From the NCBI GenBank assembly GCA_008632985.1, contig QPGO01000142.1:1-64000 (forward strand): a stretch of DNA of 64,000 nucleotides, read 5' to 3'. Numbering within the stretch: position 1 is the stretch's first letter; each line of letters begins with the position of its first letter. This DNA is from Psammoneis japonica. Lineage: Eukaryota. The notes below the pieces were generated by a model that worked only from the letters and a program-made list of their open reading frames with translations, had not been told where the DNA came from and searched no databases. The translations under genes were made by a program, and so were the position numbers. Positions 936-60,299 of the stretch are shown one piece after another.

Positions 936-1444
936 TGCTTATACTGAATTGTGTACTGAAATTGCGTTGACTTGAGTGTTCGTAATTGCGTTGTTGTCAG
1001 TAGACGACTCTTGCTTTTGTGAGAAATTGTGAGCAGGAACAAAAACTATCATGGACACAGCCACGTCATGCGGACGTGGAGATGATGACGTGTGCATGAT
1101 GGTAAGTACAGTACATACGTACGCGAACGCAGACACTGTATCGGAAGAGTTTGCCGACCGGGTCACCGAAATAGTTTTTTTCAGCCACACGCACATTAGG
1201 GGATATTTACAATAATTGTTAATGAATAAGTTTTAATATATTTAGGTTTTCAATCATTTTACTTTCTTTCAACTCGCATAAATTTCAATTCAATTCAAAA
1301 TGGGTGCGCGCCATTTCATTTTTTGCGAACATCACGCGCCGCCTCACGCCTCTCATCAACATCACAACAACCGCAAACAAAAACAACAAACAACGGCTTA
1401 TTCTTGCAAGCAACGCAAGTAACAGATTTAGCAGAGCAGCAACC

Positions 1445-16111: not shown

Positions 16112-16169
16112 CGGGGCCGAATGTCTCTCTCTTCAATTTTCAATTCTGCCGCAGTCTTTCAACATCATT

Positions 16170-16170
16170 C

Positions 16171-16205
<35 letters not shown>
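16170..16205 (+). repeat. (CAA)n microsatellite, ~12 units
   Basis: Perfect CAA/AAC run between the bacterial segment and block B. Confidence 0.95.
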
Positions 16206-16214
16206 AACTGGTAT

Positions 16215-35347: not shown

Positions 35348-35756
35348 CGCACGCAAAGATCTAATAGCAGTTCTTGCTGTTTCAGCTATAAACCATATCT
35401 TCCTTAAAACCGTGGTATTGACCCGTGCTTGTTTTATACGCAGTACAATACGCATTCATAAGCACATCGGCACGCCGTCTTCATATCCTCTACGATGTAC
35501 GTCTGTGTTGAGTGTCTAGCTAACAACGCGTGCCATCCTGATCACGGGTAGAATTTATATTGCACAGTTTAGCTGTAGGGCAAATTGACTCTGGCATGCT
35601 TCCGTATCCCGAACTTAAAAGCTTTCGCAGTGATTCGTAGTACATACATTTCACACAGACACTGCACTACTGATCATATCTGATCATATCATGTCTATAG
35701 AGAGTAACAGCTACCACAAACGTTTGCCGCCATATTGCGTTGCTAAAGCAAACACT

Positions 35757-36680: not shown

Positions 36681-36986
36681 ATTTCTTCAATGTTAGCGCG
36701 GAACTGCGGTGAGCGTTGCCGACCGGACCGGAGAACGTCAGCCTGTCTGTGCTGCGATTTAGCTGTGCTGCCAACAGAGTTGACGCCGAAGTTTGTCGCC
36801 TCTACGGTGTGTTTTCAAGGTCAAGTGTGATAGACCTCTACTCTGGAAATGTGGTGATTTTGCGAACCCAGTTTCTACAAGTTCATGTGTTGTGTCATGG
36901 CGTTTTGCGTTTTTGTGGTGCGTGCTATGGTGCACCGGTCCTCGTACTGTACCTGGTACGGAAACTTACCGTAACGGTAGTGTGAA

Positions 36987-37083
36987 TGAGCTCTGGCACG
37001 AGACACTCGTATCTGCTTCTCAGACAGACAGACACACTCACAGACAGCATAGAAAGATCTCCAACAGAAGCTGAGCTCGGGCG
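36987..37083 (+). repeat. ~100 bp element repeated at 53129-53237, immediately upstream of DRS1
   Basis: tgagctctggcacg...tctgcttctcagaca(g)gacagacacactcacaga...agaagctgagctc present at both positions. Confidence 0.85.
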
Positions 37084-37549
37084 AGTGCACAGATCGGAGA
37101 CCAATGGGAGACAGCTTCCACAATCTGCTTCTGATGCCTTTCTTTGTCAACATTGCACTGCTGAGTTGATGAGCTCTGGGAGTGAGTTTTCACTTGCAGC
37201 ATCTTCCTCTCACAGTGGCATCAGCACCGGCGGCTGTGCACACCCAAGTCACAGCAGGTCTCGGACCCAGCTGCCATCTCGGCAAAGTGGCTGTTTCACT
37301 GTTTGCAGCTCCTCCTTGCTTCTGGAGTGAGCAGTTCGGCCACCCCAATGGCCTCCCAGCCTGGTTTGGATGCTCCTCCAGCTCTCCAGATGTGACATGC
37401 GCGCGGCGGCCTTCGCATGGATTTGATGTCATGTGCTCCAGCCCCACGCGAAACTCCACACAACTGGGCCCACAGAATTCTGCATGCAAGCTCCACAGCA
37501 CAACAATTTAATTGAAAATGCACTCCAGCTCTGGGTGGGATGTCTTGCA

Positions 37550-38090
37550 GCACAGGACTGTGACATTAAAGAAGTTTTTTTCATCTGCTGTGTGCTGCAG
37601 TTGCTCGCACATTTCTGTGCAACACTTGCACAATTTTGTGTCATTTTGCAGCACATTGTCATCAGGCTGTCCACTCAACAACTTTTGACATGTTTTAGAG
37701 TGCCACTCTCTGATGTGTCAAGAACAGCACAGGGCAGGCAAATCTTCAAAAACGTTGAGTGTCAAGAGGCCCAATGTCATCGTGCACAGCTCAACCTGTG
37801 CGCAGGGCTGGAAAGCATCTGACGGAAATGTTTGTCTTCAAAATCAAACAACAGATGACCAAGTTTGTGGCACAACTGTGCCTCTCTTGATGAAATTGTT
37901 GAAAATTTGTCTGCACTGCACCATTCTCAAGACAGTCAAAAGAGCGGCTTTGCAAAAAATGTCAAACACGGTTGAGTGGGTGGCCCAACAATTGCACCAC
38001 AAAATGATGCAAAATTGTGACAAAGTCACAGAAAAATGTGCAATTGCAACATGCAGTGGATGAAAAAAGATTCAGTGTCACAGTCTTGCA
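37550..38090. repeat. Long imperfect palindrome (foldback/MITE-like), centre ~37830
   Basis: e.g. agaacagcacagggcaggcaaatcttcaa (37720) vs reverse complement of ~37899-37927 agaatggtgcagtgcagacaaattttcaa; outer arms also pair. Confidence 0.7.
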
Positions 38091-40282
38091 CCAATTTCTG
38101 ATGATGCTGTCACAGCCATTGGCCTCTCGGCCACCACTGACAGCCTGGCTGCCACTGCTGCAGCTCTTCTGGCCCAGGCTCTTCTGGCTGACAAAGGCAC
38201 AAGCCTTTGCACACCAGAGAAGCATTGTGCTGCACAGGCTTTTGTGCTTTCAGGGAGGGGCACTTGTGTTTGTGCACACTCACCATGCCCCAACCTTGGA
38301 AGGTCAAGGTGATCCTCATGACACTTGCTCTGACCCCATCCCACAGTTGCTGCTGGCCTCAGCATTGCTGTGCTGGGCTCCTCAGTCCCTCAGCCAGAGG
38401 GCTGGTTGGCAGCTCTCACTCTGGGTTCAAGACATGCACCCCCACACCACCAGACTCTTTCTGTCCTGCTGTTGCCATGCACTTTGGGAACAATTCCCTT
38501 CTGACAACCTGGTCTCCCAAGCCACTTGATTGTTGCGTGGCTCCATCTGCAGCATGTTCCTTCAAGGACAGCAAGCTTGCCACTGAACTTGGCTGATGAA
38601 TGTCATTGGCTGCTTTGCACCTGCATGGGCACACATGGGGAGTCATGCCACACTTGCCCAGCATGCAGCAACGCAGACCTCCCTGCTCCTTTGTCGCTCC
38701 CATCTGATCAATCAACAGATGAGGTGTGGTGTGCAGTGCCATGAGTTTTCCAGCACCCACCCTGCTTTGACTTGCCAGTGTGGCAAACCCACGCTGCTGA
38801 TGCCACTTTTGAGCAGCTTCTTGTGCCAGCCTTTCTGCTGTGAGCACTGATGCCACTGGTTCCAGGGTGGCTTTGATGTCCCAGTGCTTGTTGCAGGAAT
38901 GGTTTGCCACAGTTGTTGCCTGCCCCATGGACTTTGTCATGGACTTGATCTCCAGCAGGTCTCAATTTAAGACTGGCCAGACAGAAAGGCACATCCTCCT
39001 CATGCTCTTGTGTTCCTAAAACATTTGTTGAAAAAAGGTGTGCTGAGAACATTCGTGCACCAAACATTTTTTCCTCATTCACATGACCAACTGTCTTGAT
39101 TGTTGAGACATTTTAAAGGCCTTCATTTGTCAGGAACAAGGAGCTGACAAAAACAACACATGTGCAGATGAAAAGCACCTGACAAGTGCTTCCCATCAAT
39201 GTTCACACCTCAAAGTCAACTGTGTGAGCTTCAAGCTGGGGTGTGCTTTTCTGTCTGGCCAACTCCCTGTGCTGCAGTCAAATTCTGTGCAAGAGTGACC
39301 AAGACTTGCACTCTGCATGTCTTGGTTGTAAAGCCAAGGCTCGCAACAGTGTTTGCCTGGTTTGCTGCTGTCTGGACAAGCACCCCACTGAACACAGCTT
39401 TGATCTTCAGCCTCATCACCCTCTCACAGTGCACAAGCTGCAACAAGCCTCAAAATGTTTTGGTCTCAACCCTTTTATGGCAAAATTGGGGGACCTCTTT
39501 CTTGCACAACACTTCCCATGCTGGCTTGCCTGGACAGCCTGAGCTTCCTTGCCTCTTCATTGCTGCACAGGCACTGCAAGTTCAAATGGTGGACACCTCC
39601 ATGAGTGGTGACATTGTCTGTGCCAGCCAAGGGGGGGGCAGTGATGGCAAGGGAATCATGAGTTGGCTTGCCCACTCTTCTGCACCTCCTTGCATTTGTC
39701 ATCTGTGCCCACTTGCACAGTGCACACTTCCCCTTCATGGCAGCCATGACCCAACATGCTGAGTCAGCAGCTTTTGCACCAAACACTCTGCTCAATCTGC
39801 CGCTGCCACCCAGGCAGCCCACCCATGACTTTGCCAGCAATCCTGTTCTCCACGCCACCCTGCAGCTGCTCTTGGTCAGCAACAGTCTCTGCAAAAGGCA
39901 GTGCAGAGCACACCACCCACCTCCTGGGTCCAGCTCGCACCCCAGCACCCCTCTCTTCCACTCTCTTGGCCACACCTCCAATGAGTCAGGCACTGTTTGC
40001 TGACTCTGACTCCCCAGTTGGCCCCTTGGCTCCTCCCAGCCCAGCTCCTCCTCTGATGGCAACTCCTTGGTCCACACCCACCTAAGATCAGCCAGCACAT
40101 TCAGTTGCTGGCACTCCAGCTCCGCCGGCCTCCTCTGCTGAAGACTGGTCCTCACATTGGGGCAACAGCCAACAAACCCATTTGCAGAGAGCCACAATGC
40201 ACTTGCCCACCATCACTTTGGAGTCAATCCTTCCCGGGTCTCTTGGCCAGCACAGCTGCCGCCATTGTCCCAGATGCTTGCA

Positions 40283-40385
40283 AGCTGTTTCCAGCATGGA
40301 TCAACCCAGCCTTTTGCGATGCAGTGTTTGGTCAGCTGTTTCCAGCATGGATCAACCCAGCCTTTTGCGATGCAGTGTTTGGTCA
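40283..40385 (+). repeat. Perfect 51-bp tandem duplication
   Basis: agctgtttccagcatggatcaacccagccttttgcgatgcagtgtttggtc occurs twice. Confidence 0.95.
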
Positions 40386-40499
40386 GTCAGCGGCCATGGA
40401 AGCTGCTCAGTTGATGAGGATTTTTCCAAAGGGAACGGCTCATGACAGCTGTCTCTTCCAGTGCCTCCTTCAGTGCATTGTTCTTTCACTCGGAAGCAT

Positions 40500-40990
40500 T
40501 TCATGGAATTGATGGAGTGGGCCAAAAAGCAAGAACAAGACGAGGCTGTGTTTGTCAAGGATCAGCTTGGGACAACAAGACAATGAGTTGTTTTCCAAGG
40601 CAAAAGCGTTGCATCAAAAAGACCATGACAATGACAATGGCCATTTTGATGAGGACAATGGCCATTTTGATGAGACTTGTTTGGATGGAAAAAAGAGACA
40701 GGATTGCCTCTTGGAGTGTTGTTGCAGTGAGGCGGAATTGGCGACGATTGCAATGACATGTTTGTCAGTGTCACCAAGGGCATGGCAAGAAAAACAAATG
40801 AGATGGCAGAGGAGAAAAAGGCAAGAAAGAATGCAGATAAAAAGGAGTGACAAATGGCCAGCATGCAAAAGAAAATGATGAAGGAGGCTTGCAAAGAAGA
40901 GTTTGTCAGACAAAGCAATGAGGTTGCAGCTGACAACGTTGGCGGAACATCTGTTTTCCGACACTCGCAATCTTTTTTATGTGAAGAGAT
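40500..40990 (+). pseudogene. Mutated, internally deleted copy of LTV1 3' parts
   Basis: Aligns to ~33915-34092 joined to ~34704-34998. Confidence 0.93.
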
Positions 40991-43277
40991 TAAGTTCCAT
41001 GGTGTTGGAAGAGGTTGGCATGGGGAAATGTGTGGCGGGAGAGGTGCGCGAAGCGTGCTTGGGGATGGAGAGAAAAAGGGAGGGCCCAAAGTGCGGACAG
41101 ATGGTTGAGGCAAAGAGTTGGCAACAGAGGTGCTGTTGGGATGATGAAGCAATGGATCTTGGTGTGAAGAGAGATGGTGGGAGAGAGTGCAGCCAAAGTT
41201 GAGGCTGAGGATTTGGGAAGCCCAGAGTTGAGGTGTGGCAGCATGATGGGAAGAGCCAAAGTGGTCCGGGGACAGCAGTTTCCAGGCCATGTTGGAGTGG
41301 CTGAGAAGGTCAGAAGGGGCGAGCAGTGAGTTGGTGAAGGATGCTTGAGAGTTGGAGAAGGGTGGTGGGCTTGTCCAGGGTGGTTTGGGAGGGAGGGGCA
41401 GGACAGAGGCGGATGCAGAAGAGGAGGATCCAAAGAAGAAGACATGAAAATGGTGTCCGATGCCGCCTGGGTGGTCAAAGGTGAAAGGGAGAAGAAAGAG
41501 GCCTGCTTGGTTGATGGCGTCGATGACGTCAGAGTTGGCAGCAGATTGAGTGGAGCAACCAAGAAGCTTGTCCCATGTGCTGCTGAGGTGAACCTTGTTT
41601 AATGGGTTTTCAGGGACAGGCAAACCAGGTGCAGGAACCGGGGGAGCTGGTGGTGCAGCAATGTCAATGGCCAAGAAGTGATGAGCAGATGGGGCGTTGG
41701 GTGGTGCAGAGCCAGGAGTGAGTTGAATGCCAACATTGGCGGGGCGTCAAGGGGGTGGTCAGCGAGAAGGCCGGGTGGTTCGAGACATGCTTGTTGGCAG
41801 GAGAGGCACAGGCTGCAAAGAGGACCTGGGGTGTCAATGATGGCACAGACAGTGTCGCAGATGTGGTTGGACAGCGGGCTTTCATGCATTTTGGAGCATG
41901 CAAAGGCATGATCACCGAAGGGGTCAGGGTGGGTGTGACCACATGGACAGTCGTGTTGGAGCAAGGTGGCAGAGGGATTGCAGGGAGGCGCAGCTTGTGG
42001 AGGAGGAGCAGTGTGAAAAGGTGTGAGGGAAGTCGGTTGGAGGTGGAGGATCAGGAGAGAGAATGTGGGCAAAGGCTTGTTGGAGGAGACAGAAGGGATG
42101 GAAGGGCTGGTTGCATGGAAGGATTGGCAAGGATCTGAGGAAGAGCATTGGTTTTGTGGTGATGAAGGTGAAGGCGTTGAGCAAGGCTGTGCAGGTTGTG
42201 GTGTTCGATGGCATGCTTGAGGGACATGAAGGAGGAGGAGTTGAAGCAGAGGAGAATGGGAGTGTGATGACTGAAGATGTGGCAGAGGGAGAGGGTGGAG
42301 CATGGGTTGGAGACCATGAGCCGAGGGCTGTGGAACGGCTTGGAGGAAGTTTGAAGATGTCACCACCGGTGAGTGGGACACCATGTTGGGTGCAGTGCAT
42401 GGATCTTGTCAGAGAAGTGATGAGAGCTGGGATGGCAATGGCGGAGATGTCACGGTGTCCGACGCTGCCTGAAGAAACGGGTGGGTTGGCAATGAGTTTG
42501 GCAGCTGAGGGGAAAGGGGCAGGATGTTGAGTGAGGCAGGCAAGGAAACGTGGGGAATGGCCGATGATTTTGTCCACAAAGGGTGAAGCCCATTGGAAAG
42601 GAGGGGTTGAAAGGTCGTTAGAGTGCATGAGATTGAAGCATGCAACAGTTGCGAGGAGGTGGGTGACAGAAGGGATGGAGCACTTGTGAAAGAGGGTGCT
42701 TTGTGTTTGTTTGTTGGTGAGGTGGTCAGTGAGGTGCAGGAGGTCTGAGGTGGAAGATGTGGCTTTGTCATGAAGAAAGTTGATGACGAAGGCGCAGGAG
42801 CCAACAGGTTGGCCAAGGAAGTGGACACCAGAGGTGATCTCGGGTTTGATGCATGGGTCGTTGTGAGGATTGAGGAAGGAGAGAGCTTTGGAGAGAGCGT
42901 GAGCGTCGGCAGGCGGGAGGCGGTCTGTGGGGGAGGTGCCGGATGTGGAGGTGAGGATTTTGGTTTTGGAAGTGTCGAGTTTGATGCCAAATTGGGGGCC
43001 ACAAGTGGAGAGGCATTGGAGGAACCAAGGGAGCTGGGTGAAAGGGAGGAAGACATGAGTGTTGTCAATGCATGATGAAGCAGCAGATTTGGAGCGAGGA
43101 GGGAGTCGATGGTGCAGTTCGTCGTTGATGGGTTTGAAGACTTGGGCCAGGACAAGGCAGGAGAAGGCGGGGCTTGGAGGGCAGCCTTGGGTGAAGCCTT
43201 CAGGTTGAGAAAAGGATGACCATCGAAGGCGATGATCTTGACACCAACAGGTGTTGGGGTTTTGGCAGGCCAGAGAT
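40991..43277 (-). mobile_element. 5'-truncated non-LTR retrotransposon with C-terminal restriction-like endonuclease (CRE/R2-like), mutated
   Basis: RT motifs EGFTQGCPPSP and SCIDNT (from YIDD), GIKLDTSKTKI, FLGQPVG; Zn knuckle CPCG...DPFGDHAFAC; AIDI, PFTFDHPGG; interrupts the duplicated LTV1 downstream sequence at gagat|ggcatct. Confidence 0.8.
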
Positions 43278-45037
43278 GGATGGCATCTGTGGTGTCACGC
43301 AGTCTTAAATTGCCTCCACCCGTTTCCTCCTCCAGTCGCCAGTTTTTAAGAACAAGAAAAACTGGAAGATGTGAATGATGCAAGGGCAGTCTGCATGTCG
43401 GGGTCGTTGAGTTCTGCAGCATGCCAGTTGCACCGCATGCATTTGCTTGCAAATCATCAATGCACACCACAAGATCTGGCAGCAGTTCTTCCTGTTTCAT
43501 TTGGGAGCATCTTGTTTGACGACAACATCTTAATCCACAATGAAGCACAGCAGCTCTAGAGTGTGCTTGCAGTGAACCGCATCTTCCTTAAAACCATGGT
43601 GTTGACCTGTGCTTGCTCCACACGCAGCACAACATGCATTCCAAAGCACATCGGCACACTGTCCTCACATTCTCTCCATCATGTGTGTCTGCGTCTGCAT
43701 CACCACGCATGCATTCTGATCACGGGCAGAGCTTGCATTGCAGAGTTAGGATGCACAGCAGGGCAAACTGACTCTGGCATGCTTTTGCGTCCTGAACTTG
43801 AAAGTTTTGTCAGTGATTCGCAGCAGATGCCTTGAACACAGACACAGCACTTCGGATAAAATCATGTCTCTACAGAGAGTTGCAGATGTCACAAACGTTT
43901 GCTGCCACATTGCATTGTTTTACCAACTGCTCTGCATTCCTAGAACAAACCGATCGGGTCGCTTTCTTTTCCTTCCGGCATTCCGGCAACCAAACAGATC
44001 TGGTTTTTCAGAAAGCAAAGAGAAAAAGATGCTCACTCTGGACATGTCCGTGCTCCTCTCCCCAACTTTGGCCAAGACATGCGCCCAAAATGTTGGATGA
44101 ACATGATCACACTTCAAGAGTTGCTGCCCATGCACCTCCATCAAGACAGAGGCCACTGCATGATGACCCATTGCAGCTGCACATTGCAACGCTGTTGCTT
44201 CCTTGATGGAAGTTGCACTCAAATCAGCTCCATGTTCCACAAGCAGTCTTGCCATGTTTTCATCACTGGCAACGTGTGATGCAATGTGCAAAGGCGTTGG
44301 AGATCATTCTCTGTGGCATTGATGCAAGCTCTGTTTGCCAGGAGCTCTTGCGCCATGTCTGTGTTTCCATGGGTCATTGCAACATGAAGCGGTGAAAAAA
44401 CACCATGTGCCGACTTTGAATTTACATCAGCACTGTTCTGCAACAACAGGAGACACATTTCAGCATTTCTGCTCATTGCAGCCATGTGCAAAGGTGTCAT
44501 GGCTAATCCATTGTAAGAGCCACTGTTGTTTACATTCGCTCCACGTGACAATAAAATTTCCATGGCTGACAGATCACAGAATTGACATGCCTTGCCAAGT
44601 GGTGTGAGACCCCCCATCCCATCCATCAAACTGGCTCCAGCATCCAGCAAGAGCTGAAGCTTGACATCTTGATCAGTTGCTTCTCTAGAAAGGATGGCAC
44701 AAAATGTTGGTGTGTGGTAAAAATGGGATCATTGTCTTCGTCCGTTTGGACATTCAGTGTGGCATTCGGGTCTGCTCCATCTTGAAGAGTGCTGCAGACA
44801 TCTTCTGCAGTGCCATGTTTAATGGCCCTGGAAAGAGACCTTTCCAATGTCCAGTTCCACATTTCTTCAATTTAAGCACCGGACCGGAGAACGTCAGACT
44901 GTGCTGCGATTTGACTGTGCTGTCAAGAGAGTTGACACCAAAGTTTGTTGTCTCAATGGTGTGTTGTCAAGGTCAATCGGGACAGACCTCTGCTCTCTGG
45001 AAGTGTGCAGGTGGTTTTGAAAACCCAGTTTCTACAA
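43278..45037 (-). pseudogene. Mutated copy of the ankyrin gene and its flanks
   Basis: Colinear with ~34997-36880, frameshifted, with TA and CG transitions. Confidence 0.93.
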
Positions 45038-46600
45038 CGAAAATGGAAGTTGGTCTTATGAAGGCACTGTGTTGTGACTTTCGTACAACTCAACTAACAC
45101 ATGGTCCCCGAGTGGTCCTGTGGGATGTGGGTGTGGGTGTGGCATGATGTGCGATGACATCATTGCAACATGCCATGCATTGATTGAGTCGTCGGACAGT
45201 CATGCCGCATTCTTGCAAGCATGTTTGTCATGTAAAAACTCCCATCGCACACACAGCACAGGAGGCACCCCTAAATCTTGACTCGCCTGAATGAAACCAA
45301 ACAGACTGTGACACTTTGTGACCTTTCTTGCAACAATGAAAAAGCACATGTCACATTGACTCAACCATGATGATGCCCCACGATTCTTCTCTGGTGCCTT
45401 TGCAGGACACCAGCCCTGTGAACAATGTTGCCACCAACACTGCTGCAAAAGGTGGTGTCATTGTTCCAGTTGTCGTGGGCCTGGCACAAGCAAAATGAGA
45501 TGTCCCACAAACATGTGCTGCACCGATCTCACCCCAACACCTCCCACAGCTTCCATGATGAATGTCAATGCCACACATGTGTTTCAGTTGACCACCATGC
45601 CTGGTGCTGTTGCTCGCACCCTTGTTGCCACAGGTGTGGTTCATGCTGCCATTGTCTTGTGCCAAAAACAGCCATGATGAAATGGCTCCAACTCACACTT
45701 TTTTAAACTCTTGCCCCACCACCTCCCACAGGTGCCACACAATGGGCTGGTGCTCAGTGGATGGGCCCATCAAAACCTTTCTGGTCATGGAATTTGTTGT
45801 TGAAAAGTTGAGGAAATGAAATGCTTTCTGGCACAAGGCTTGAAAAGAGCCAGTTGCACAATTGCAGGCTGAGACTTGGGGGAGAACATGACTCAGGATT
45901 TTCCTGTGACTGCAGGCATTCTTTGTGCACAAGTGCAACATTTGGTGATTTCACATCACATCAAAATGTTTGTGACATGTGAACATCACATCACCATGAC
46001 ATCAAACCACATTCTCCACTTGCAACGGGGTGCTTGCAACTGCTCCATGAGCTGGAAAACATTGAAGTCAGCATGCACAAATGAGCTTCATCTGTCCATC
46101 CATCCATCTGTCCATCATCCTTCCTGCAAGCTCCATCTGACCATGACACTCCCTCGTGCCAATGAGGGCTCTGACTGGTGCTGTGGATGGAGCCAAGCTG
46201 ACGGAGCATTGTCTGTGCAAAGCCTCCAGATCTGGGGTGTGTCTCTCCCTCAAAACAAAATTGCTGTTTGCACAGGTTCAAAAACACTGTTTTTGGGCAA
46301 AGCAACAGTGCTTGGTTGAACTGCTCAAAATGTCATCAACCCATCATCATGCACCACAAGCCTCCAAACTTTGTCTCTCCTGCCAAGAGGTTCAGTCAGA
46401 GCAAGTCTGCCAAGTTGCAGTTTGCATCAACTTTTGCTGTTAAACCAGTGAGTCAATGGTGCCAAACCAGAGCTCCACAAGGCTTCCTCTGTGCTCTTGT
46501 CGTCACACTTGCCTTGGCCACTTGTGTGGCTGTGGTTTGCTTGCAAAGTTGTGTGTGCAAACTTCAAACCAACAATGTGGCAACATGTGCTGCGAGACAC

Positions 46601-46753
46601 TTACAGACTGGCGGCATCGGGACAATCTAACAGATGTCTGAGCCAGATGACAATCGTGTGCTGGATGAGAAAGAAAGTGAGCAAAAGCTCCATGCTGTCT
46701 GTGCCAGTCTGTCCGACAGAAGGGAGTGCACTCCCCATCTCGGATGTCTGTCA
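46601..46753 (-). repeat. Copia 3' LTR
   Basis: Matches 52062-52230; preceded on the minus strand by the PPT. Confidence 0.92.
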
Positions 46754-46893
46754 CCCTCCCCTGATGAGCAATGCAATGCTCAACAAGAAAGAAAGAGACG
46801 ATCCGAATAAAAAGAGAGGACCAGAACAGCAGAACAAAACAAGCAAGACAGAGACACACCCAAGACTCAATCCACAACAAAACCCGATGACAA

Positions 46894-49640
46894 TCAACGG
46901 CAATGTCCCATCAAGCGGCGAGCATGGCGGGAATGGAGTGTCCAACCCACAGCCTTGGTCAGTGCATCAGCAGGGTCAATGACACCCGGGATGTGTCGAG
47001 CGACAATCTTGCCCGCGTCATGCCAGTCTTGGACAGCAAAGTGTTGAACATCAATGTGGCAGGATCGCTCCGCAGGCACCTTGTTGTTGATCATCTGGAT
47101 GGCAGAGGAGTTGTCAATGTGCAAGGGAGCAGGATCACGTTGAGGAAAGCCCAATTCTTCCAGAACCATGCGGAGGCACAGGGTCTGCTTTGCACCAGTG
47201 ACAGCCGCGAGGAACTCAGCTTCCATGGAGCTGGTGGCGGCAATCATTTGCGTGCGGCATCGACAGTCAATTGCAGCACCAGCAAGGACATGCGCGTGGC
47301 CAGCAGCAGAATGGCGATGCCAGAGTTCATTGGCATGTGCCGCATCAATGAAACCAAGAAGTTGGAAAAGGTCGGCAGCACGAGGGAAGTCCTGGAGAGA
47401 TGGATCATCCTCAAGCCATTTGAAATCACGAGGAGGAAGACCGGGATCGTGCTTGGACTTCTTGCACATCAGTCCCAAATGTTTGGTGCGCTGCAAATGC
47501 TTGGCCATGTGCTTGAGTGAATCACAATGAAGCTCAGCCGGGGCCTTGGAAAACTTGGACAAGGTGACAAAGACCAATTCACCCAAAAGAGAACGGCAAG
47601 AGAATCCCTGGGACTCAGTGAGAGCATCATGCTCAGGAGCACCCTCTTCAGGACCTTCGGTGGCACACAGATCAGGAATGCAATCAACCGGAACAGGTGC
47701 AGCCTTGAAATCTGAATCAGACTCATTCGCAGCGGGAGCATCCCAACCATGGGTCTTGAAAACACGGTCAAGGCAGCTGGCAACGTTGACAGCAATGGAG
47801 TCGTCATTTTGAATGACATCAATGCCATCAAATTCAGCAACCAAGCCCAAATGCTTGAAAGGAGGAGTGTCCTCATTGTCCATCTGGAGAGCTTTTCCAA
47901 TGTGGTCGTAGATCTCTTTTGCAATCTTTTCGGAGGGACAAGCAACAGCAAAATCATCAACCTGATGAAGAAGAAGGACCTTGACACCATCACATTCACC
48001 AGAGCAGACACACTTGTCATGAGTGGCATTGCGAAAAAGAAGTTTCGCACCCGTGAGAATCGAGTTGATGTGCTTTTCCCAAAGAACACCAGCTTCATGG
48101 TGACCTTGAAGAGCATGCTTGAGCGGAAGAACACAATGGCGGGGTGCTTTCTTGCCAAATCGCTTTTCACACCAGGTGGCATGTGCATCATCAACAGCAA
48201 TGAAAACTGGCTGTGAAGGACCAGGAGAATGAGTGCAGGCATCCCGAGCATCACCTCCGTAGACTCAACATGACACAGCCGCACTGAGAGCAAAAAACAT
48301 CTTTTCGACAGAGCGTTCCACACACGACGAACAGGTGGAAGTCAACTTGTGCAAGGCCGGCATTGCCGACTTGGAGCCATCACCACATTGCCGAGAATGA
48401 CGTTGTCCATCCGGCTTTGCCATGTGGTCCCAATGCGGATGCACAACATTCACGCCAGGAGGACCATGCACACCAAGGGCATGAAATTGATCCAATTGGC
48501 GGTGCTCGCCTTCTTCCCATTCAGGCCATGTGTCAAGTTTACAAAGCTTGGCACGGGTGAGGCGGTCAAGAGCAGCTTCCTCCGGAGTGAGAGAGCGGGA
48601 GCCAATTGCATTGAGGTGTGCACAGAAGACATCCACAGGGACAGCCTCATCCGAAAAATCATCATCAGGATGGAGAAGGGCTGCAATGGAACGCACATCT
48701 TCCAAAGTGAGTTCAGGAACATGGGAGTCGTCCTCCATGGAATCAGGTTCAAACAACTTTGCTTCCTCAAATGCCTTGTTAAGGGTGCGAGAATCCAATC
48801 GTCGTTCCGGCACAAAAGCAATCTCAAAGGTCGGGATTTCATCATGGAAGACCTGAGACAAGGCCTCTTCAGCATCCGACGGAGTAAAAACTTCACGCTT
48901 GTTGACAGAGACAACGCATGCACTCACAATCTTGTTGTGAGCAGCACGGAGGGAAGAAAATGAGGATGCCGCAGGACTGTGCTGCTTGATTTCCGATGCA
49001 TGGACACGGTCCATTAGCGCACACTGGGAAAATCAAAAACTGCAGGCAGGATCCTTTTGGGGACATTTCATGGTGCATGTGACAGTCGCAGCAAAAGGAT
49101 TCGACGAAGAGGCAAACACAGGAATGGTGGTGTCCTGTGTTTCAGCTGGAAAAGGCTGACCATTTTCCACACGCTGCAAATGGACAGCATTGGGAGGAAG
49201 TTGATCCAAAAACAGGTCATTCATGCCTTCATCGCAGCGCACATGCTTGGCCGTCTTGACTTTGTCAGTCTCAGGATCCCACCACATGACATTCTTGAGG
49301 GTGTTTGGAAGGCAACCAAGGAATGCGCCCTTCTTGGAATTGGTCCGGAAGGCAGCAGAACAAGCAGTGGACCGTTTGGACCATGCTCGACTTCCGAAAG
49401 TCTTCAGAGCAGTAAAATCTTTGACCTTTCCTGCAGCAAGGGTGATGGGTGCCGCATCTTGATCTTTCGCAGGAGTGGCATTCTTGATGCAGAGGCAATG
49501 GTAAAATGCATGGGGCCAGAATCGAATCGGAAGGTTGGCACCAATTAAAATTGCACGAATTGCGTTTTCAACAGTCAAATGTGAGCGTTCAACAGGTCCA
49601 CATTCTAAGTCCCTCCCCTGATTGTGATTGCCAGGGTCAT
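46894..49640 (-). pseudogene. Copia pol remnant (integrase C-part, RT, RNase H)
   Basis: LPIRFWPHAF, FGSRAW, GAFLG, FSCRSLLGEL, GFIDAAHA, SSMEAEFLA, HIDNSSAI, HIDVQHF, PADALTK; frameshifts. Confidence 0.88.
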
Positions 49641-50407
49641 CATCAGGAATCATCTTGGGATCAGGAGTGCCAGCCTTCGTCAAGCTCAAAAGAAGGTCAG
49701 CAAATGACACAGGTGAAAGAGGAGCAGCAGCGGAAGGTGACGAGTCGGTTGGACCCTCTTTCACAGTTGCCCCACTTACAGGAGTTTTTGGATGGGAGGA
49801 GGATGGGCGGCATTGTTCATCCGAACATGACAATGGCCCCAGGAAAAATCCTTCCTGGCCGTGTCAGATTCAAGTGCATCACGAGCATGCTGATCACGTT
49901 GGAGGAACTGGGAGAACCGAGTGAGATGGGTGCGCAGGTGCTCAGCATTGTTCAACACAGGACACTCATGGAACAAGTGGTTGTTGCCACAAACAACACA
50001 TGGACGGTTCTGTGCAATGGCAGGAGAGGACTTGATCCTACAGACACAGGCCTTGTAGACACCATGGAGGGCTTGTGCATCATCATCTGCAGAAACATCC
50101 ACAGTGGCAAGTTCATTCACAAAATGCTCCACAGTTTCCGCAGGTTCTTCCACAGCAGGAGATTCAGTTTCCTTGGGAGGCTCCTCAATCGCTGAAGGCA
50201 GAGTAGAAACTTCATCTTTGGGAAGTGAGTCAAGACCGCGGACAGGAGCTGCAAGAGGAGGAGCAGGCAAAGTGTGAAGACAATGTGGAGGACATTTGGG
50301 AGGGTCCTTGACACGAAGAGCTGGACTGTCCGGTTCCTTGAGAATCGCACTAACAGTTTCAACAATCTTCTTCTGGGGGTAAACTTGTGTTGTTTGTTCT
50401 TGTCTTC

Positions 50408-51859
50408 TCAGGCATCCACTGTTTTATGGTGAAGGCACTCGCCACAGCGGGTGTTGCCAAGAAAGACATCGAGCTCACCAGGGTTGTCAAGAGAGGCATC
50501 AACATTGGACATGATGGCTCGTAGCTGGAGACAGTCTCTGAAAAGAGCACAGCAGCTGAGGACTGCAAGATTGTTTTGGCACAGGTGGCTCTTGATCAAC
50601 TCATGCAGACGCTTCGTCCAAATCGGTGGGATGTCAAAGAGAATCATCTTGACAGCAGCATGTCCATCACCACAGCATTGACGAACAATGTCAGGGCATT
50701 TGGAATCTGCCAGAAAAATTCCAACTTTCTGAATGTGCTGGAAGACAGTCAGTTTCATTTGGTCAAGTGCTGCTGTCATCCGGAGAGGCAGATCATCGGT
50801 TGGATCATTGCCACAGGTGAAACCCCAGTTTCCACCATCCTTGATAAAACACCACAGAGGATGCATGTGTGTGCCACAAGCCGAGGCTTGTTGGGTGACA
50901 GCAGTGTGCCAAGCACGGATTCCTTGAGGAGAGATGTCATCACAAGTGAGAGGGTCACGAAGGAAAGACTTTGCATCCCAGTCAGTGCGGTGAACAAAGA
51001 GAGAACCATCGGCAAGGATTGGATGCTCAGTGCCGTCATCGCAACAAAGGTTTCCAGACTTGTGAGGCACCAGTGATTTTCCGAGCACTTCTTTCCCGGC
51101 TTCTTTGCATTGACAGCGGGCCAGCACATCCTTTGGAAGTCCCTTTGGGTTGAAGGTGTACACAGCACTGGCAGCAGTCAATGAAGAAGCCGCGCCAGCA
51201 GCAGTCATGGCAGACGGTGCAGGAGATGACACCTTGGGAGCAGAGTTCTTCAGTGCGTTTGTCACAGCTTGCTCAAACTGTTTTGGACCAGGCAAATGAG
51301 TGGCCAGGGCCTTGGCAAAGTCTTCAGGAGTGGGACCTGCAGCAGCAACCGGTGCAGGTGCAGAACTCAAAGCAATTGGTGGATCTGGACACGGATCATC
51401 GGAGATGTCATCCCAGCAATCACAACGTCGAAAATGAGGGCTGAAATGGAAACGTAGAGTCCCAACATGCAGATGTGTGGTGTCATCGTTCTCTGAAATC
51501 GCCTTGATCACAGTCTTCTGAAGAGTGCCAAGGTTCAGACAAACCAGGGGGCCTTGAGGAGCAGCCACAAAAAGAGGAGCCTTCTCAATGATTGGTCCGA
51601 TTTGTGCAAGATCTTCAGTCTGGACAGCTTCAGGGATGACAAGATTCTGAACGATCTCATGTCGGAGGATGGCAACAGCGTCGCTCTTGAGGCCTTGAGG
51701 GGCAAATCCATCCAAAAGATCTTCAGGAGCAGGGATCTCATCCAAACAAAGGGCATTCAGGAAAATGTGGGCATCGGGCAAGCGATTGTGTGGGCTGAAT
51801 TCAACCCGTGTCGTCTTGATCTTGGTCAAATCGACGGCGTTTTGATTTTTGTTCACCAT
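50408..51859 (-). CDS. Copia gag-like ORF, mutated
   Basis: First long ORF after 5' LTR/PBS; only one Tyr in 483 aa; downstream knuckle CVVCGNNHLFHEC in the adjacent frame. Confidence 0.6.
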   Translation of the reverse strand: MVNKNQNAVDLTKIKTTRVEFSPHNRLPDAHIFLNALCLDEIPAPEDLLDGFAPQGLKSDAVAILRHEIVQNLVIPEAVQTEDLAQIGPIIEKAPLFVAAPQGPLVCLNLGTLQKTVIKAISENDDTTHLHVGTLRFHFSPHFRRCDCWDDISDDPCPDPPIALSSAPAPVAAAGPTPEDFAKALATHLPGPKQFEQAVTNALKNSAPKVSSPAPSAMTAAGAASSLTAASAVYTFNPKGLPKDVLARCQCKEAGKEVLGKSLVPHKSGNLCCDDGTEHPILADGSLFVHRTDWDAKSFLRDPLTCDDISPQGIRAWHTAVTQQASACGTHMHPLWCFIKDGGNWGFTCGNDPTDDLPLRMTAALDQMKLTVFQHIQKVGIFLADSKCPDIVRQCCGDGHAAVKMILFDIPPIWTKRLHELIKSHLCQNNLAVLSCCALFRDCLQLRAIMSNVDASLDNPGELDVFLGNTRCGECLHHKTVDA

Positions 51860-52061
51860 GGTTGCGTGGGAAAAAAATCAAATTTCTGCGCAGAGCTCTG
51901 GCATGTGTTCTGCGGTGGTCGTTTGATCACAAATCGAGAGGTGAAAAAACAGCTGTGACAATGATGACGATTTCAACGAAGAAAAAGTCACCAAATCACA
52001 CAGGTGGCGTTGCAAAGGAGGAGCACAGAGGAAGAGGAACAGCGTGCTGCTGCTCACAACC

Positions 52062-52230
52062 TTGCGGACTGGCGGTGTCGGGACAATCTAACAGACATCT
52101 AGGACAGATGATGATTGTGTGCTAGATGAGAAAGAAAGTGAGCAAAGGAGAGATCATCGGATCTCTCCATGCTGTCCATGCCAGTCTGTCCGACAGAAGG
52201 GAGTGCACTCCCCATCTCGGATGTCTGTCA
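52062..52230 (-). repeat. Copia 5' LTR
   Basis: Starts TGACAG on the minus strand; followed by the PBS. Confidence 0.92.
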
Positions 52231-53310
52231 GACACAGTTGCGCATGTCTTCTCAACAATCCCAACTTGCCAAATGATTTGCTCTAAAGAGTGAGAACAAC
52301 AAACACATGTGTGTTGGATTTTTTACTGTGCATCTTTGATCTCATCCAGTTGCCATGTCCTTCTCAACAGAAGCTTCAACACATCATCTTTTTCTCCTCT
52401 TTAACACACCCGATTCTCTTGAACTCTCCCATCTCATGACTTGTTCCAACACTGTTGGGGAATCACCTGAACAGAAACATTCAAGGTTTTCAAAAAATTG
52501 ACAGCAAATGTCCCTCCTGTGAGCAATTGCATCTGGAGGTGGCTGAGTGCAGCACGTCATGTCAACGCGTGCAAATGCAGCGGGGAAGTGCTGTGTGCAG
52601 GTGTCTGCGTGTGTGACAGAGGCATCTGTGCAGTGCAAATGTCTGAATGTAAAGAACATTGATCACCAGATGCAGGTGGCCACAGCTGTGATGATGACAA
52701 GGACCATTCAAAAAAAATGCACCACAGACATCAGACGACTCATGGACATGCTTTGAAAAAATTGAAGAGCACACCGACTTTGAGAAAAGCATCCCAAGAA
52801 ACTGCAGAGATGAGAAAAACAATCAATGTTGAGTTTTCCAACCATGAGAATTCAAACAAGTGGCCAAACATTGCCGCAAACAACCCCACAACACGCTGTG
52901 GCATGCGCAACTGTGGCAGAAGAAATCAGAAAGATGTCGGCATTGTTCTTGGACTGGAGAAAGCGGCACCCAGGCGCAAGACGCACAAGGCACCAGGCAC
53001 TTTGCAGATGTCTGTGCAGAGGTGCCAAAGCTAGTGCCAAACCTGGGAGCATCAGCAGGAAGACACTGATGGATGTCGATTTGAATAAAGAACCACACGC
53101 CGTGACATTTCATGTGCACTTGCATGTGTGAGCTCTGGCACGTGGCTGACACTCATGTCTGCTTCTCAGACAGGACAGACACACTCACAGATGGAATCTG
53201 GAATCTTTTTATCTTCAGTAGAAGCTGAGCTCAGGCGCGCCACTCATCACGGGCTCATCTTTTTTTTCCTTTTTTTTTCACACACTCAAACACTACTCTA
53301 GACCCAGACC

Positions 53311-57452: not shown

Positions 57453-58642
57453 TGTGTGGTTGTGATGCAAGTAAGTTGTTCAGTAAGATAGAATGCTCAC
57501 CAGGATTGTATTATTTGTAAGTCGTAAGGTGAGTTTGGCGTTTTCAGTTTGGCTGTTGGCAGCGCACATGATGTCGGCAGTCGGCACGTCCCTGCGCTTT
57601 CGAAAGATGCATGAAAGCATTCGGGAGTGTTCCTACGTACAGTTAGTACGGTAGAAATGTATCGGGGGTAGGGCAGCGAAGGACGGACGCTCTGCCGTTT
57701 GTCGGTTCGTTCGTTGTCTGGTGGGTTGTCACGCTCCTGCTCCAAGTGGTGCTGGTGCAAAATGCAGCACCAACATGATGTGTCCACTGCTGTGTCCCGA
57801 AAAACCCTGTGGCTCAGCCAGACAAGCGCTTCTTGTGTCCTGCGTGCAAGAGCCAGCAGCTGTTTGTGCTTTCAAATGACATGTGGTTGGCTTTCCAAAG
57901 GGTCAGAAAAGGTGCTTGTTCCTTCTTTTGATTGCTCTGTGATCTTTCTGTTTTTTCTGCAAGCCACCTGTCTGGTGCCAATTTGCCCCAGCACCAAATT
58001 TTTCAAGCACAACATGTGCAAAAATGACTGTCCTGAGCAGCTGATGCTGCATCAAACATGAGTGGCCAAGGGCCAAGTTCAGCCACAGTCAGAGCACACC
58101 TTGGGCGTGTCACCAAAATCCTTCAATTCAGAAAGATTTTTTTTTCACTTTGTGGAGAGAATGTCTGGCAGGCACATTTTGATCAATGATGTGACTGTGG
58201 CAGCACAAAACCAGAAACCAATGGTTTGCAGGTGGACCTCTTTTCCATGTGCCTTTTCACTTTGCTGGCGTGCATGACATTTGCGCACAATCTCTCAATT
58301 CATGCAGATGATCTTGCAACACGCAAAATGCGCGCCAAGCAAACCGAAAACCAAGCGTGGAGCTCAGCTTGCTCAAAAAACAACAAGCACTTTTATGTGC
58401 ACAAAACACAAACAATGCAAAGCCTGGCAATGTCTGCAACATCCTCATCACTCACAGCATCCCGGTCCCGGTCATCATCAAGAAGGAGCACAAAGAGGAT
58501 TAGATTGGACCCCTGTGTCGAAATGGACAAGAAGAAGAAGAAGCGTCAAGGGAAAGAACGTGACTGCCATGCACTCCTTGACCTCCCTCAGAACTCCATC
58601 ACGTAAAAACAAACAGAAGATCATGACAATGAAATTCACAAA

Positions 58643-60296
58643 ATGCAAACAGAGACAGAAGAGCTTGAGCTGGAAGCCCAGAGAGAGGAGAAGAGAGCAC
58701 GGGCCGCATCCCCAAGCCAGCTCAACGCGGAAAACCTTGCCTTCGCGAGGGGATGCATGAGGATTCATGATCGTGACTCTGGCATGGCTCGTCACCCCCT
58801 CTTTGACAGAGTTGTCCAATGTCTGCAAGAAAGTGCCTTTGAACAAATGAAGAATGCAATGTTCCAACGGCGTGCTGAGGAGAACATTCCCATCATGGAA
58901 GGCCTTCCCGACTTAGAGGATGTTTCCAATGTGCATGAGGAGGCATGGGGCATTCTCTCTGAGTCCATCAAAACGAAAATGGAAGAAAATGAAGAAAATC
59001 GCAATTCTGCGGAGCCACAAAAAGCCGTTCGGGGATGAGAAGCACATTGTTCCCATCAACTGACAAAACTGCTGGAGCTTTTTTGCCATCATCACAACTT
59101 GCCTTTTGTCCTCACACAGCAGGTCCCATGTTCGTCGGCTTCCGACAAGGAAGACACGGTCAACATTGCAGTTGATCCAATCAAAGCAGTCAACGAGGCT
59201 GTGCTCATTTCGCTCACAGAGGTGAAAAGGGATGCAGGCTCGAGCGCCAAGTGGCAACTTTGTGGTCACCTGTCAGAAGTTGAGTCGTCGCGGCTTAAAG
59301 GACAGATCTCTTTCGGCCTTGCCATCGATCACACAAGTGTCAATCTCCATGGTTTCTGTTGGAACAGGGGTGACAGTCCCCTCCTGGAGCACTCTTTGTT
59401 GTGGCGAGAATGCGTGTCGGGCGATGCATCAAAGGTTTTGAAGGCCTGCTTCATCTGCCTCTTTGCGCTTTCCAAGATGAAAGCACGATCATCTACACCC
59501 GATGACTTTTGTCCATTGGTCAACATGGCTGTCAAGAGGATCTGCCCAAAAGTCTTTCGCGAGATTTGTCACAATGGATCGCTTGGGGATCTGTGCAAGC
59601 TGTTTGACTGTGGGCGTCATCGTCTCTGTGTTCGACAGACAAACGAGTGCATTGTGAAGGTGACACACAGAAGTGGAGAGGGCATTCAAGTTCTGAAGGA
59701 CGAAAGGGTGTTTTGTCTCAGTGCTGAAAACACCTTGGTTCAATGGGCGTCACAAGCCAGAATGTCCTGAACACGTTGCACTGCTTTGCGACAAACTTGC
59801 AAGACTTCACGAAAAAAATCTGAAACACTCCAACGTGCTTTGTCAAAACATCTTGTTTGGAGGAGATGAGAGCAACCCTTCTGCTGAACTTGTTGACTTT
59901 GACTGCGCTCACTGTGGCATGTGTCCATCCTCTTGGAATGCATCTTTTCCGGAACGTCATCCTCGCGCGAAAGAATGTCATGAGTCACATCCTGGACACG
60001 ATGTGTGTTCTGCCATTGCAATCCTCTGCCTTTTTTTCAAGCAAACTGATGGAGGAGAGAGCCTGCATGAAACTTTTGCGGAAGGACCTTTTGAGAAAGA
60101 TGGTCACCCGGCATTGAAAAAGGACTGGGAATGGTCTTCGGCGAAGGATGTTGCCTGTTGGATTTGGACTGAGAAACTCAGGCTAAAGGGAAATGGCAAG
60201 GTTGTGGCAACCCAGCAAACCAATTCACACCTGGAAAAAGCACATGAGAAGAACAAAGCGCTGTTGAACACTCAAGGGAATTACCGCTGCAGTTAG
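58643..60296 (+). pseudogene. Mutated protein kinase-like gene inside block E
   Basis: LHEKNLKHSNVLCQNILF (catalytic loop HxD changed to HSN), LVDFDCA, ERHP, HDVCS; frameshifts; almost no Tyr. Confidence 0.6.
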
Positions 60297-60299
60297 CTG

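Follow-up and report, generated by a model that had tools for sequence, protein, structure and literature searches.

A degenerate Copia-type retrotransposon and the other repeat blocks of the window (the whole 64-kb stretch of DNA analysed) have very probably been rewritten after integration by near-saturating A:T-to-G:C changes at TpA, together with decay of CpG, both confined to the repeat blocks. Two processes would be involved. One would convert A:T to G:C at TpA almost to saturation, with TpG or CpA as the product according to which strand was affected. The other would be the ordinary decay of CpG to TpG or CpA that 5-methylcytosine deamination is expected to cause in silenced transposons. 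The two tyrosine codons start with TA, so the first process would convert Tyr to Cys (TGY) or to His (CAY). Where the preceding codon ends in T, it would also turn Thr into Ala, Ile into Val and Asn into Asp. It would further remove TAA and TAG from all frames and alter the TA within the putative half-tRNA primer site for tRNA-iMet.

Structure of the element

The element belongs to the CoDi-like Ty1/Copia retrotransposons of diatoms and is dead, with an internal deletion (Table 1). Its two LTRs lie in direct orientation and are 81% identical over their blastn match, the 5' LTR being the longer one through a 16-nt insertion. As is typical of Ty1/Copia elements, the LTR pair is bordered on both sides by the 5-bp duplication GTGTC, a primer binding site (PBS) follows the 5' LTR, and a polypurine tract precedes the 3' LTR. 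The stretch from 49605 to 46903 corresponds to residues 550-1468 of an intact pol protein of 1,470 residues and encodes the C-terminal SH3-like domain of the integrase, the reverse transcriptase (RT) and RNase H. The position of the integrase domain ahead of RT supports the Copia gene order. The RVT_2 profile scored 25.7 bits, under its cut-off of 31.6, and the Copia type of the RT is indicated by relatives, matched at E values of 1e-152 to 1e-79, that carry PF07727. The best named relatives are Copia proteins of Nitzschia and Cylindrotheca. The part of pol that matches residues 1-549 has been deleted, and the element lacks the full set of gag, protease, integrase, RT and RNase H. Since the protease and the integrase core are absent, it is a deleted derivative and not an autonomous member. 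In addition, gag is frameshifted near 50400, and the pol remnant contains in-frame TGA codons at 49033-49035 and 48265-48267. Within the 64-kb window, there is no second copy of the family.

Table 1 Features of the element and of the ankyrin gene pair, with positions in the window
Feature	Position	Strand	Basis
Whole degenerate CoDi-like Ty1/Copia LTR retrotransposon	46601..52230	-	LTR pair; relatives are diatom Copia proteins
Target-site duplication GTGTC, upstream copy	52231..52235	-	read from sequence
5' LTR, 169 nt, starts with TGACAG, ends with CGCAA	52062..52230	-	
Degenerate PBS GGTTGTGAGC	52052..52061	-	directly after 5' LTR
gag ORF, N-terminal and central part, 489 aa stop to stop, ATG at 51859, 1 Tyr	50408..51877	-	
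gag C-terminal part, other frame, containing Cys-His knuckle CVVCGNNHLFHEC	49776..50423	-	
pol remnant, single frame	46894..49863	-	match to intact pol
RT/RNase H ORF, 456 aa stop to stop, 2 Tyr	46894..48264	-	
Polypurine tract AGGGGAGGG, adjoins 3' LTR	46754..46762	-	read from sequence
3' LTR, 153 nt	46601..46753	-	
Target-site duplication GTGTC, downstream copy	46596..46600	-	read from sequence
Host ankyrin gene	35618-36880		
Ankyrin copy, inside depleted block, 79.6% identical to host gene	43801-45038		

Loss of tyrosine

The original prediction had counted no Tyr in an ORF of 329 residues (RT/RNase H) and one in an ORF of 483 residues (gag). Both counts were reproduced when the frames were read from the first ATG; the two Tyr residues of the RT/RNase H frame lie upstream of its first Met. 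In the same columns of 40 RT/RNase H relatives Tyr averages 4.5% (range 1.1-6.4), and in 34 gag relatives 3.7%. About 15 and 18 Tyr residues would be expected where 0 and 1 were found, with a probability on the order of 1e-7 in each case. Conserved Tyr columns, defined by Tyr in at least 70% of the relatives, number 21 (13 in RT/RNase H, 8 in gag), and 20 of them have been replaced, 13 by Cys, 6 by His and 1 by Phe, the Tyr ancestry being deduced from relatives at most 55% identical to the element and not from an ancestor at the nucleotide level. In RT/RNase H, 12 of the 13 Tyr columns have been replaced, with Cys in 9, His in 2 and Phe in 1, vs 45 of the 231 other conserved columns (57 of 244 overall). 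In gag, all 8 had changed (4 Cys, 4 His) vs 21 of 94.

Four motifs had been cited as containing Cys or His in place of the usual Tyr. This is borne out for FSCRSLLG (Tyr in 37 of 40 relatives), AGHAH (27 of 39) and PLHIDN (27 of 40) but is wrong for DAAHAN, because His is the normal residue of the relatives (32 of 39). Nor did the element lose a YxDD motif of RT, as had been supposed. Its clade has RQVDD, with Arg in the respective column of 37 of 40 relatives, and the HQVDD of the element arose from Arg by conversion of CGT to CAT, which is a CpG change and not a loss of Tyr. The core of the proposal, that a spectrum which removes TA also removes Tyr (TAY to TGY or CAY), is correct. That an element can be killed in this way without stop codons is logically sound, since no change of TA to TG or CA makes a stop of a sense codon, but this particular copy also suffered a large deletion, the gag frameshift and two in-frame TGA codons.

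Context and direction of the changes

Replacements in RT/RNase H were scored against a consensus of at least 60% of the 40 relatives. All 14 A-to-G replacements at first codon positions (8 Thr to Ala, 4 Ile to Val, 2 Asn to Asp) are preceded by T, none by A. Changes in CpG context converted Arg to His, Gln, Cys or Trp, Thr to Met and, in three cases, Pro to Leu (CCG to CTG). The two LTRs differ at 18 of 156 aligned positions, and 13 of the 18 differences are interchanges between TA, CG, TG and CA, among them four double differences of TG versus CA. As LTRs are identical at integration, these changes occurred after integration. The outcomes along the sequence do not form strand runs.

All repeat blocks of the window, which make up about 31 of the 64 kb, have a TA o/e of 0.02-0.16, a CG o/e of 0-0.7 and a TG/CA o/e of about 1.3-2.2, with no depletion of AA; the corresponding values of the gene regions are 0.3-0.9 for TA and about 0.7-1.4 for CG. 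The element itself contains 27 TA within the 5,634 bases counted (46600-52233). TA and CG depletion share the same block edges, which are sharp within about 100 bp, such that discrete inserts are hit and the neighboring genes are spared. The cause of the TA loss is local to the repeat blocks. TAA and TAG are down to about 3 per kb and strand, vs 14-17 in the gene regions; with the destruction of TA these stop codons vanish and the frames stay open.

The duplicated host gene allows the direction of the changes to be read. Between the ankyrin gene and its copy, 23 TA became TG or CA vs 1 reverse change, and 36 CG became TG or CA vs 6 in reverse. The latter bias, together with the low CG o/e of the blocks, points to CpG decay of the 5-methylcytosine type. 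Besides this duplicate, the decay extends to the LTRs, the PBS and the non-coding flanks.

The primer binding site

The claim that the PBS is altered was confirmed, although the site lies outside the interval 46894..51859 to which it had been assigned. The element has GGTTGTGAGC where relatives have GGTTATGAGC(CC) at the same LTR junction, with TA reading TG. By chance, 2.35 such 10-mers with one mismatch would be expected in 64 kb, and 2 were found; the match is meaningful because it is located exactly at the LTR junction and because relatives contain the motif at that junction. We take GGTTATGAGC(CC) of the relatives to be complementary to the anticodon stem-loop of initiator tRNA-Met. Neither the window nor 20 related loci contain tRNA genes. 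Ty5 and Drosophila copia are described as using an internal segment of initiator tRNA-Met as primer (PMC5371799, citing Ke et al. 1999). The element shares with them the PBS directly after the 5' LTR and differs in that its PBS reads TG in place of TA.

Related copies

The 2,396 short contigs of the family in run X1 differ from the element at 393 places, of which 340 are transitions and 53 transversions. Among the 40 best-supported of these 393 places, there are five adjacent TG/CA swaps and only two places at which the others keep TA where the element has TG or CA. At least 99% identity to the element was found for 474 of the 2,396 contigs, including one 153-nt piece without a difference. X1 may be the source sample of the window assembly, and its contigs are thus not independent proof against an assembly artefact.

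Most of 80 related metagenome loci have a TA o/e of 0.55-0.82, and low values recur in L052 (0.05), L072 (0.18) and L069/L070 (0.35). Members of one family that are 88-90% identical form a graded series, with 61 TA in L060, about 25 in L016 and L018, and 4 in L052. From L060 to L052, 53 TA became TG or CA and none changed in reverse; among the 13 Tyr codons, 11 now encode Cys and 1 encodes His. Transitions in this environmental family outnumber transversions 143 to 15. Although L052 is lowest in TA, it has 76 CG vs 64 in L060, which shows that the loss of TA is uncoupled from that of CpG. Tyr-poor and Cys-rich relatives are also found in public protein sets (P0016, P0058, P0243, P0248, P0287, P0319), whereas the named diatom relatives contain 3.7-6.3% Tyr. 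Some of the TA loss could have been inherited from a master copy that was already poor in TA.

Alternative explanations

Since TpA is its own reverse complement, A-to-G on one strand and T-to-C on the other yield the same sequence, and the primary lesion might reside in thymine. According to this scenario, an enzyme would modify T in TpA of silenced DNA, to a 5-hydroxymethyluracil-type base for instance, and mispairing or misrepair would then give T-to-C. 5-Hydroxymethyluracil favors TpA in dinoflagellate DNA. However, nothing we found supports thymine modification in diatoms, and the sole proposal published for the signature is adenine deamination; we regard the scenario as improbable. The common blocks and sharp edges of TA and CG depletion would suit a single cause, in which T:G mismatches arising from 5-methylcytosine deamination enter non-canonical mismatch repair and a polymerase-eta-like enzyme introduces A-to-G changes nearby. 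The signature of polymerase eta is WA (both TA and AA) and includes transversions. The restriction of A-to-G to positions after T, the undepleted AA, the dominance of transitions and the uncoupling of the two losses in L052 and L060 make this explanation very unlikely. Equally unlikely is that the RNA or cDNA was hypermutated before integration, by ADAR-like A-to-I editing or by an error-prone reverse transcriptase. ADAR prefers U before the edited A, according to the preprint on Bigelowiella natans (bioRxiv 10.64898/2026.01.13.699255). The excess of Cys over His among the Tyr replacements (13 vs 6 in the element, 11 vs 1 in L052) indicates a mild sense-strand bias, or else an effect of neighboring bases. 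Yet the two LTRs share one template and nevertheless differ mostly by TA/CG/TG/CA interchanges, both strands are hit without strand runs, and the host-gene duplicate and non-coding flanks have decayed alike. ADAR-type hyperediting of one strand that was then fixed by retrotransposition was rejected in view of both strands being hit, the LTR divergence and the ankyrin duplicate.

Less probable still is a low-TA lineage, evolved for instance to escape a UpA-cutting nuclease, in which Cys and His are native. At an individual Tyr column, between 0 and 6 of the 40 relatives do have Cys or His, and several database relatives are also poor in Tyr, but these are the TA-depleted ones. Further points against a lineage trait or selection are the losses in LTRs, PBS, flanks and the host-gene duplicate, the one-directional series among copies of one family, and the 57 altered conserved columns in a deleted and frameshifted copy. 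Least probable of all is that modified bases in repeats were miscalled as TG or CA during sequencing or assembly. Errors of long-read basecalling at methylated motifs are a known class, but metagenome contigs from other records and database proteins display the pattern in relatives, and the X1 contigs match the element, with the reservation stated above. Post-integration change at TpA combined with CpG decay remains the preferred reading.

Implications

If an enzyme lies behind the TpA changes, the most likely candidate would be an adenine deaminase that attacks either DNA strand, the type proposed for B. natans, and the changes may serve as a genome defence. The chances seem to us even that diatoms possess a DNA-level kind of RIP in reverse, in which an enzyme, likely an adenine deaminase, rewrites TpA to TpG/CpA in transposons and in anything else inside silenced repeat islands, by a system that is shared with the rhizarian Bigelowiella and is thus ancient or widespread in the SAR supergroup. 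It would inactivate proteins by erasing Tyr and would disable priming sites. Of the three stop codons it would remove two, so that gene callers report the resulting "open-frame fossils" as proteins. If one mechanism is at work, it would be a second eukaryotic genome defence that is RIP-like but chemically opposite and widely distributed, and diatoms, a major and partly genetically tractable group of phytoplankton, would be a place to seek the enzyme.

There are also practical consequences. Such transposon fossils stay open over long stretches in each of the six frames and end up in protein databases as "proteins" devoid of Tyr and rich in Cys and His. Dating by LTR divergence will greatly overestimate their age, and detection of transposons by profile HMMs is weakened, as seen here for RVT_2.

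Comparison with known systems

The CoDi-like elements of diatoms (Maumus et al. 2009, PMC2806351) are assigned in PMC5445492 to Copia "branch 1", together with Ty and GalEa. The element shares with them the integrase ahead of RT and an RT motif other than YxDD, as does fungal GalEa with QTDD, and differs in being degenerate. Diatom transposons are described as silenced via DNMT5a-dependent methylation (PMC9998398). CpG decay of methylated transposons probably accounts for the change of CG to TG/CA in the same blocks (as in the ankyrin pair and the Arg and Pro codons), but it explains only the CG half and cannot remove TA.

Repeat-induced point mutation (RIP) of ascomycete fungi likewise acts at the DNA level through dinucleotide-specific transitions. 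It disables repeats and mobile elements, and duplicated host genes can be among its targets. It was rejected as the cause because the direction is opposite: RIP changes C to T at CpA, raises TpA and makes stop codons, whereas here TA is destroyed, CA/TG are enriched and the frames remain open; strand-coordinated runs are also lacking.

The one previous description of TpA-only hypermutation in invading DNA is a 2026 preprint that deals with a chlorarachniophyte; our literature search found no report of it in diatoms. Mettrop et al. observed A-to-G/T-to-C changes solely at TpA in integrated foreign DNA of B. natans mutation-accumulation lines, reported that low-TpA coding sequences are enriched in reverse-transcriptase and DDE domains, and proposed an ADAT2-like DNA adenine deaminase (bioRxiv 10.64898/2026.01.13.699255). 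In a term search of the preprint, neither CpG nor tyrosine, stop codons or diatoms turned up. The two systems have in common the A:T-to-G:C change at TpA alone (here 14 of 14 after T, 53:0 from L060 to L052 and 23:1 in the ankyrin pair), the outcome TpG or CpA according to the strand, and the restriction to discrete inserts. The host differs, a chlorarachniophyte there and a diatom (stramenopile) here, as do the targets, which are giant-virus and virophage inserts in B. natans and LTR retrotransposons plus a duplicated host gene in the diatom. In B. natans mutation was measured in living lines; here the signature is read from sequence. The B. natans signature is partial (TA o/e 0.45 in the NCLDV region) and its link to transposons is only statistical. 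In the diatom, the TA loss is near saturation, coincides with CpG decay, affects LTR retrotransposons directly and recurs in their environmental relatives.

Structure of the element and its host

The element is a dead CoDi-like Ty1/Copia LTR retrotransposon, whose parts are listed in the table together with the other features of the window. A protein search with the element yielded 248 relatives (top E 5e-152), of which the named ones come from the diatoms Nitzschia inconspicua and Cylindrotheca and are Copia reverse transcriptases, and Pfam recovered only an integrase SH3-like domain and an RVT_2 below threshold. Compared with intact relatives on metagenome contigs, whose gag and pol are roughly 700 and 1,470 aa long, the element is missing residues 1-549 of pol (protease and integrase core), its gag is frameshifted and two in-frame TGA codons are present, at sites occupied by Lys or a variable residue in two intact relatives (L036 and L010). 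A blastn search of the 64-kb window revealed no further copy of the family, and there is no RNA run among the public runs listed for the stretch.

The best named relatives of the host MCM gene are those of the diatoms Nitzschia, Mayamaea, Phaeodactylum, Cyclotella and Seminavis, with 54-71% identity, so the host is a diatom, and one with no proteins of its own in the searched database. An unbroken ORF for the bacterial-type enzyme D-alanine-D-alanine ligase (Pfam E 6e-47) sits in a diatom gene region, adjoining a depleted block.

Features of the element and of the surrounding window
Feature	Position	Strand	Remark
TA-depleted blocks	about 6450-14150, 16050-17100, 25000-26000, 37050-53200, 57700-64000		together ~31 of 64 kb
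LTR retrotransposon	46601-52230	minus	flagged stretch is its interior
5' LTR	52062-52230	minus
16-nt near-palindromic insertion AGATCCGATGATCTCT	52128-52143	minus	in 5' LTR, lacking from 3' LTR
PBS position, GGTTGTGAGC	immediately after 5' LTR	minus
gag	50408-51877, then 49776-50423	minus	second part in a different frame
pol remnant	46894-49863	minus	single frame, downstream of gag
Reverse transcriptase motif	47950-47970
Polypurine tract AGGGGAGGG	upstream of 3' LTR	minus
3' LTR	46601-46753	minus
Target-site duplication GTGTC	both flanks of element		5 bp
MCM gene	1226-3202
D-alanine-D-alanine ligase ORF	15182-16132	minus
Ankyrin gene, intact	35618-36880
Ankyrin copy	43801-45038		inside depleted block
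Weak RVT_1 ORF	41927-43294	minus	non-Copia reverse transcriptase

Tyrosine loss and the underlying spectrum

The original prediction stated that Tyr had been erased from the element's proteins in favor of Cys and His. A recount confirmed zero Tyr in the RT/RNase H ORF (329 aa from the first Met) and one in the 483-aa gag ORF, relative to means of 4.5% (n=40) and 3.7% (n=34) in the respective relatives. When columns with Tyr in 70% or more of the relatives were taken as conserved, 12 of 13 such columns were changed in RT/RNase H (9 to Cys, 2 to His, 1 to Phe) versus 45 of 231 other conserved columns, and in gag all 8 were changed (4 to Cys, 4 to His) versus 21 of 94. Three of the four motifs offered as examples (FSCRSLLG, AGHAH, PLHIDN) hold, but in DAAHAN the His is native, being found in 32 of 39 relatives. 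The proposed loss of YxDD, the motif found at this position in most Copia reverse transcriptases, did not occur: the motif of the clade is RQVDD (Arg in 37 of 40 relatives), and the HQVDD of the element results from a CGT to CAT change. In the reverse transcriptase alignment (A1), Gln, Val and the first Asp of this diatom Copia motif are invariant in 40 relatives. Overall, the observation and the core of its interpretation were right and three of the details were wrong.

The loss of tyrosine is caused by a dinucleotide spectrum. All 14 A to G replacements at first codon positions (8 Thr to Ala, 4 Ile to Val, 2 Asn to Asp) are preceded by a codon ending in T. Replacements of the CpG type are Arg to His, Gln, Cys or Trp, Thr to Met, Val to Ile or Met after C, and three Pro to Leu (CCG to CTG). 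As read off from the alignment, single transitions in a TpA or CpG context account for about 32 of the 57 conserved columns that are changed in RT/RNase H. A G following the target A is mildly disfavored, which is only a hint from three comparisons of common ancestry.

The same change is seen in the primer binding site (PBS), the loss of which had also been claimed. In relatives, the PBS was read from contigs spanning pol, a collapsed LTR and gag, with the motif starting at the base after the LTR. It conforms to GGTTATGAGC(CC) and reads GGTTATGAGCCC in L037, GGTTATGAAC in L035, GGTTATGACG in L036, AGTTATGAGC in L048 and GGTTACGAGCCC in L051. The GGTTATGAGCCC motif is presumably complementary to initiator tRNA-Met at its anticodon stem-loop. 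Relative to these motifs, the GGTTGTGAGC of the element is indeed altered, by A to G after T, and the same change is found in the GGTTGCGAGCCC of the TA-depleted loci L069 and L070, whose LTR-end flank is shared with L051. No tRNA gene was found in the 64-kb window or in 20 related loci. Priming by this internal part of initiator tRNA-Met is documented for Ty5 and copia (PMC5371799).

Depleted blocks of the window

The spectrum extends well beyond the element. In the depleted blocks, the observed/expected ratio (o/e) of TA is 0.02-0.16, that of CG 0-0.7 and that of TG and CA about 1.3-2.2, versus 0.3-0.9 for TA and about 0.7-1.4 for CG in the gene regions; the block boundaries are sharp, to about 100 bp. 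TAA and TAG together occur about 3 times per kb per strand in the blocks versus 14-17 times in gene regions, whereas TGA is more frequent in the blocks (about 25 versus about 18). The disappearance of TAA and TAG leaves many frames in the blocks open in all six phases. In ORFs of at least 150 aa, Tyr makes up 12 of 9,245 residues inside the blocks versus 160 of 8,434 outside. Most long ORFs in the blocks are without a Pfam match; a Pfam search of 26 further repeat-block ORFs identified just the weak RVT_1 and the ankyrin copy. The former lies in a depleted stretch (40001-44000) with strongly positive GC skew (+0.27 to +0.34), which may reflect strand-unequal outcomes of TA and CG decay.

Timing and targets

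The two LTRs of a retrotransposon are identical at integration. Over 156 aligned positions those of the element differ at 18, and 13 of the differences exchange one of the dinucleotides TA, CG, TG and CA for another. These include four double differences of TG versus CA, in each of which one ancestral TA or CG was resolved oppositely in the two LTRs. Since the LTRs diverged in this manner, the process acted on integrated DNA, and RNA editing prior to integration is disfavored. Nor is it limited to transposon genes, because the ankyrin-repeat duplicate, 79.6% identical to the intact host gene, decayed in the same way: from the normal to the depleted copy, TA changed to TG or CA 23 times versus once in reverse, and CG to TG or CA 36 times versus 6. 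Its targets thus include either DNA other than transposons that lies in repeat islands, or any duplicated DNA.

The family is present at high copy number in X1, a public run of short contigs, 2,396 of which were placed on the stretch. The differing places comprise 340 transitions versus 53 transversions, and at least five adjacent TG/CA swaps are among the 40 of 393 places listed. An artefact of base calling is disfavored by the 474 X1 contigs that match the stretch at 99% or more, X1 possibly being the assembly's own sample.

Recurrence in related loci and proteins

Among 80 related metagenome loci, TA o/e is 0.55-0.82 in most, with low values in L052 (0.05), L072 (0.18), L071 (0.30) and L069/L070 (0.35). 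In an environmental Copia family whose members are 88-90% identical over 1.6 kb, TA numbers 61 in L060, about 25 in L016 and L018, and 4 in L052. Private-change parsimony is confounded in its polarity in this family, every reference copy being itself partly mutated, and dinucleotide cross-tables were used instead. From L060 to L052, 53 TA are changed, 32 to TG and 21 to CA, with none in reverse; the two loci differ by 143 transitions and 15 transversions, and of the 13 Tyr codons of L060, 11 are Cys and one is His in L052. Along the graded series of TA loss (L060, L016, L018, L070, L052), former Tyr codons swap Cys and His between copies. Along the sequence, TG and CA outcomes are intermixed at random and do not cluster in strand runs, a pattern indicative of numerous single events hitting either strand and not of processive bursts.

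Relatives of the element's RT and gag that are poor in Tyr (0-1%) and rich in Cys (3.5-4.5%) occur in public protein sets (P0016, P0058, P0243, P0248, P0287, P0319); named diatom relatives contain 3.7-6.3% Tyr. Evidently, the open frames of hypermutated transposon fossils lead to their annotation as proteins.

Mechanism and comparison with known systems

The process is directional, acts on both strands at TpA and separately at CpG, follows integration, is confined to repeat blocks and recurs in related loci. CG is no rarer in L052 than in L060 (76 versus 64), so that the losses of TpA and CpG are separate processes; because of this uncoupling, one enzyme for both was rejected as the leading idea. 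The agent would be an enzyme directed at silenced or repeated DNA, and the TpA to TpG/CpA change is best read as adenine deamination. Modification of thymine would yield the same sequences, because TpA is self-complementary, and cannot be told apart from deamination by sequence. Patch repair of the polymerase-eta type and a trait of the lineage are both disfavored as sources of the spectrum.

No report of a TpA signature in diatoms was found in the literature, and a term search of the CoDi paper (PMC2806351) and of a 2025 preprint on diatom transposons (bioRxiv 10.1101/2025.10.24.684338) did not reveal one. The only precedent found is a 2026 preprint on mutation-accumulation lines of Bigelowiella natans, which describes a gain of 231 mutations across two viral regions integrated in the genome, with a single exception A to G or T to C and all of those at TpA, at a rate about 1000-fold over background, and proposes an ADAT2-like DNA adenine deaminase; a term search of the preprint revealed no mention of CpG, tyrosine, stop codons or diatoms (bioRxiv 10.64898/2026.01.13.699255). 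The consequences seen here, erasure of Tyr, frames opened by the loss of TAA and TAG, and a putative knock-out of the PBS, go beyond the kind described. The diatom process resembles RIP in that repeats are disabled via dinucleotide-specific transitions, but RIP makes TA, its defining feature, whereas the diatom process destroys it. All of its features that were testable here agree with the B. natans signature, and we assign the process to that very recently described kind.
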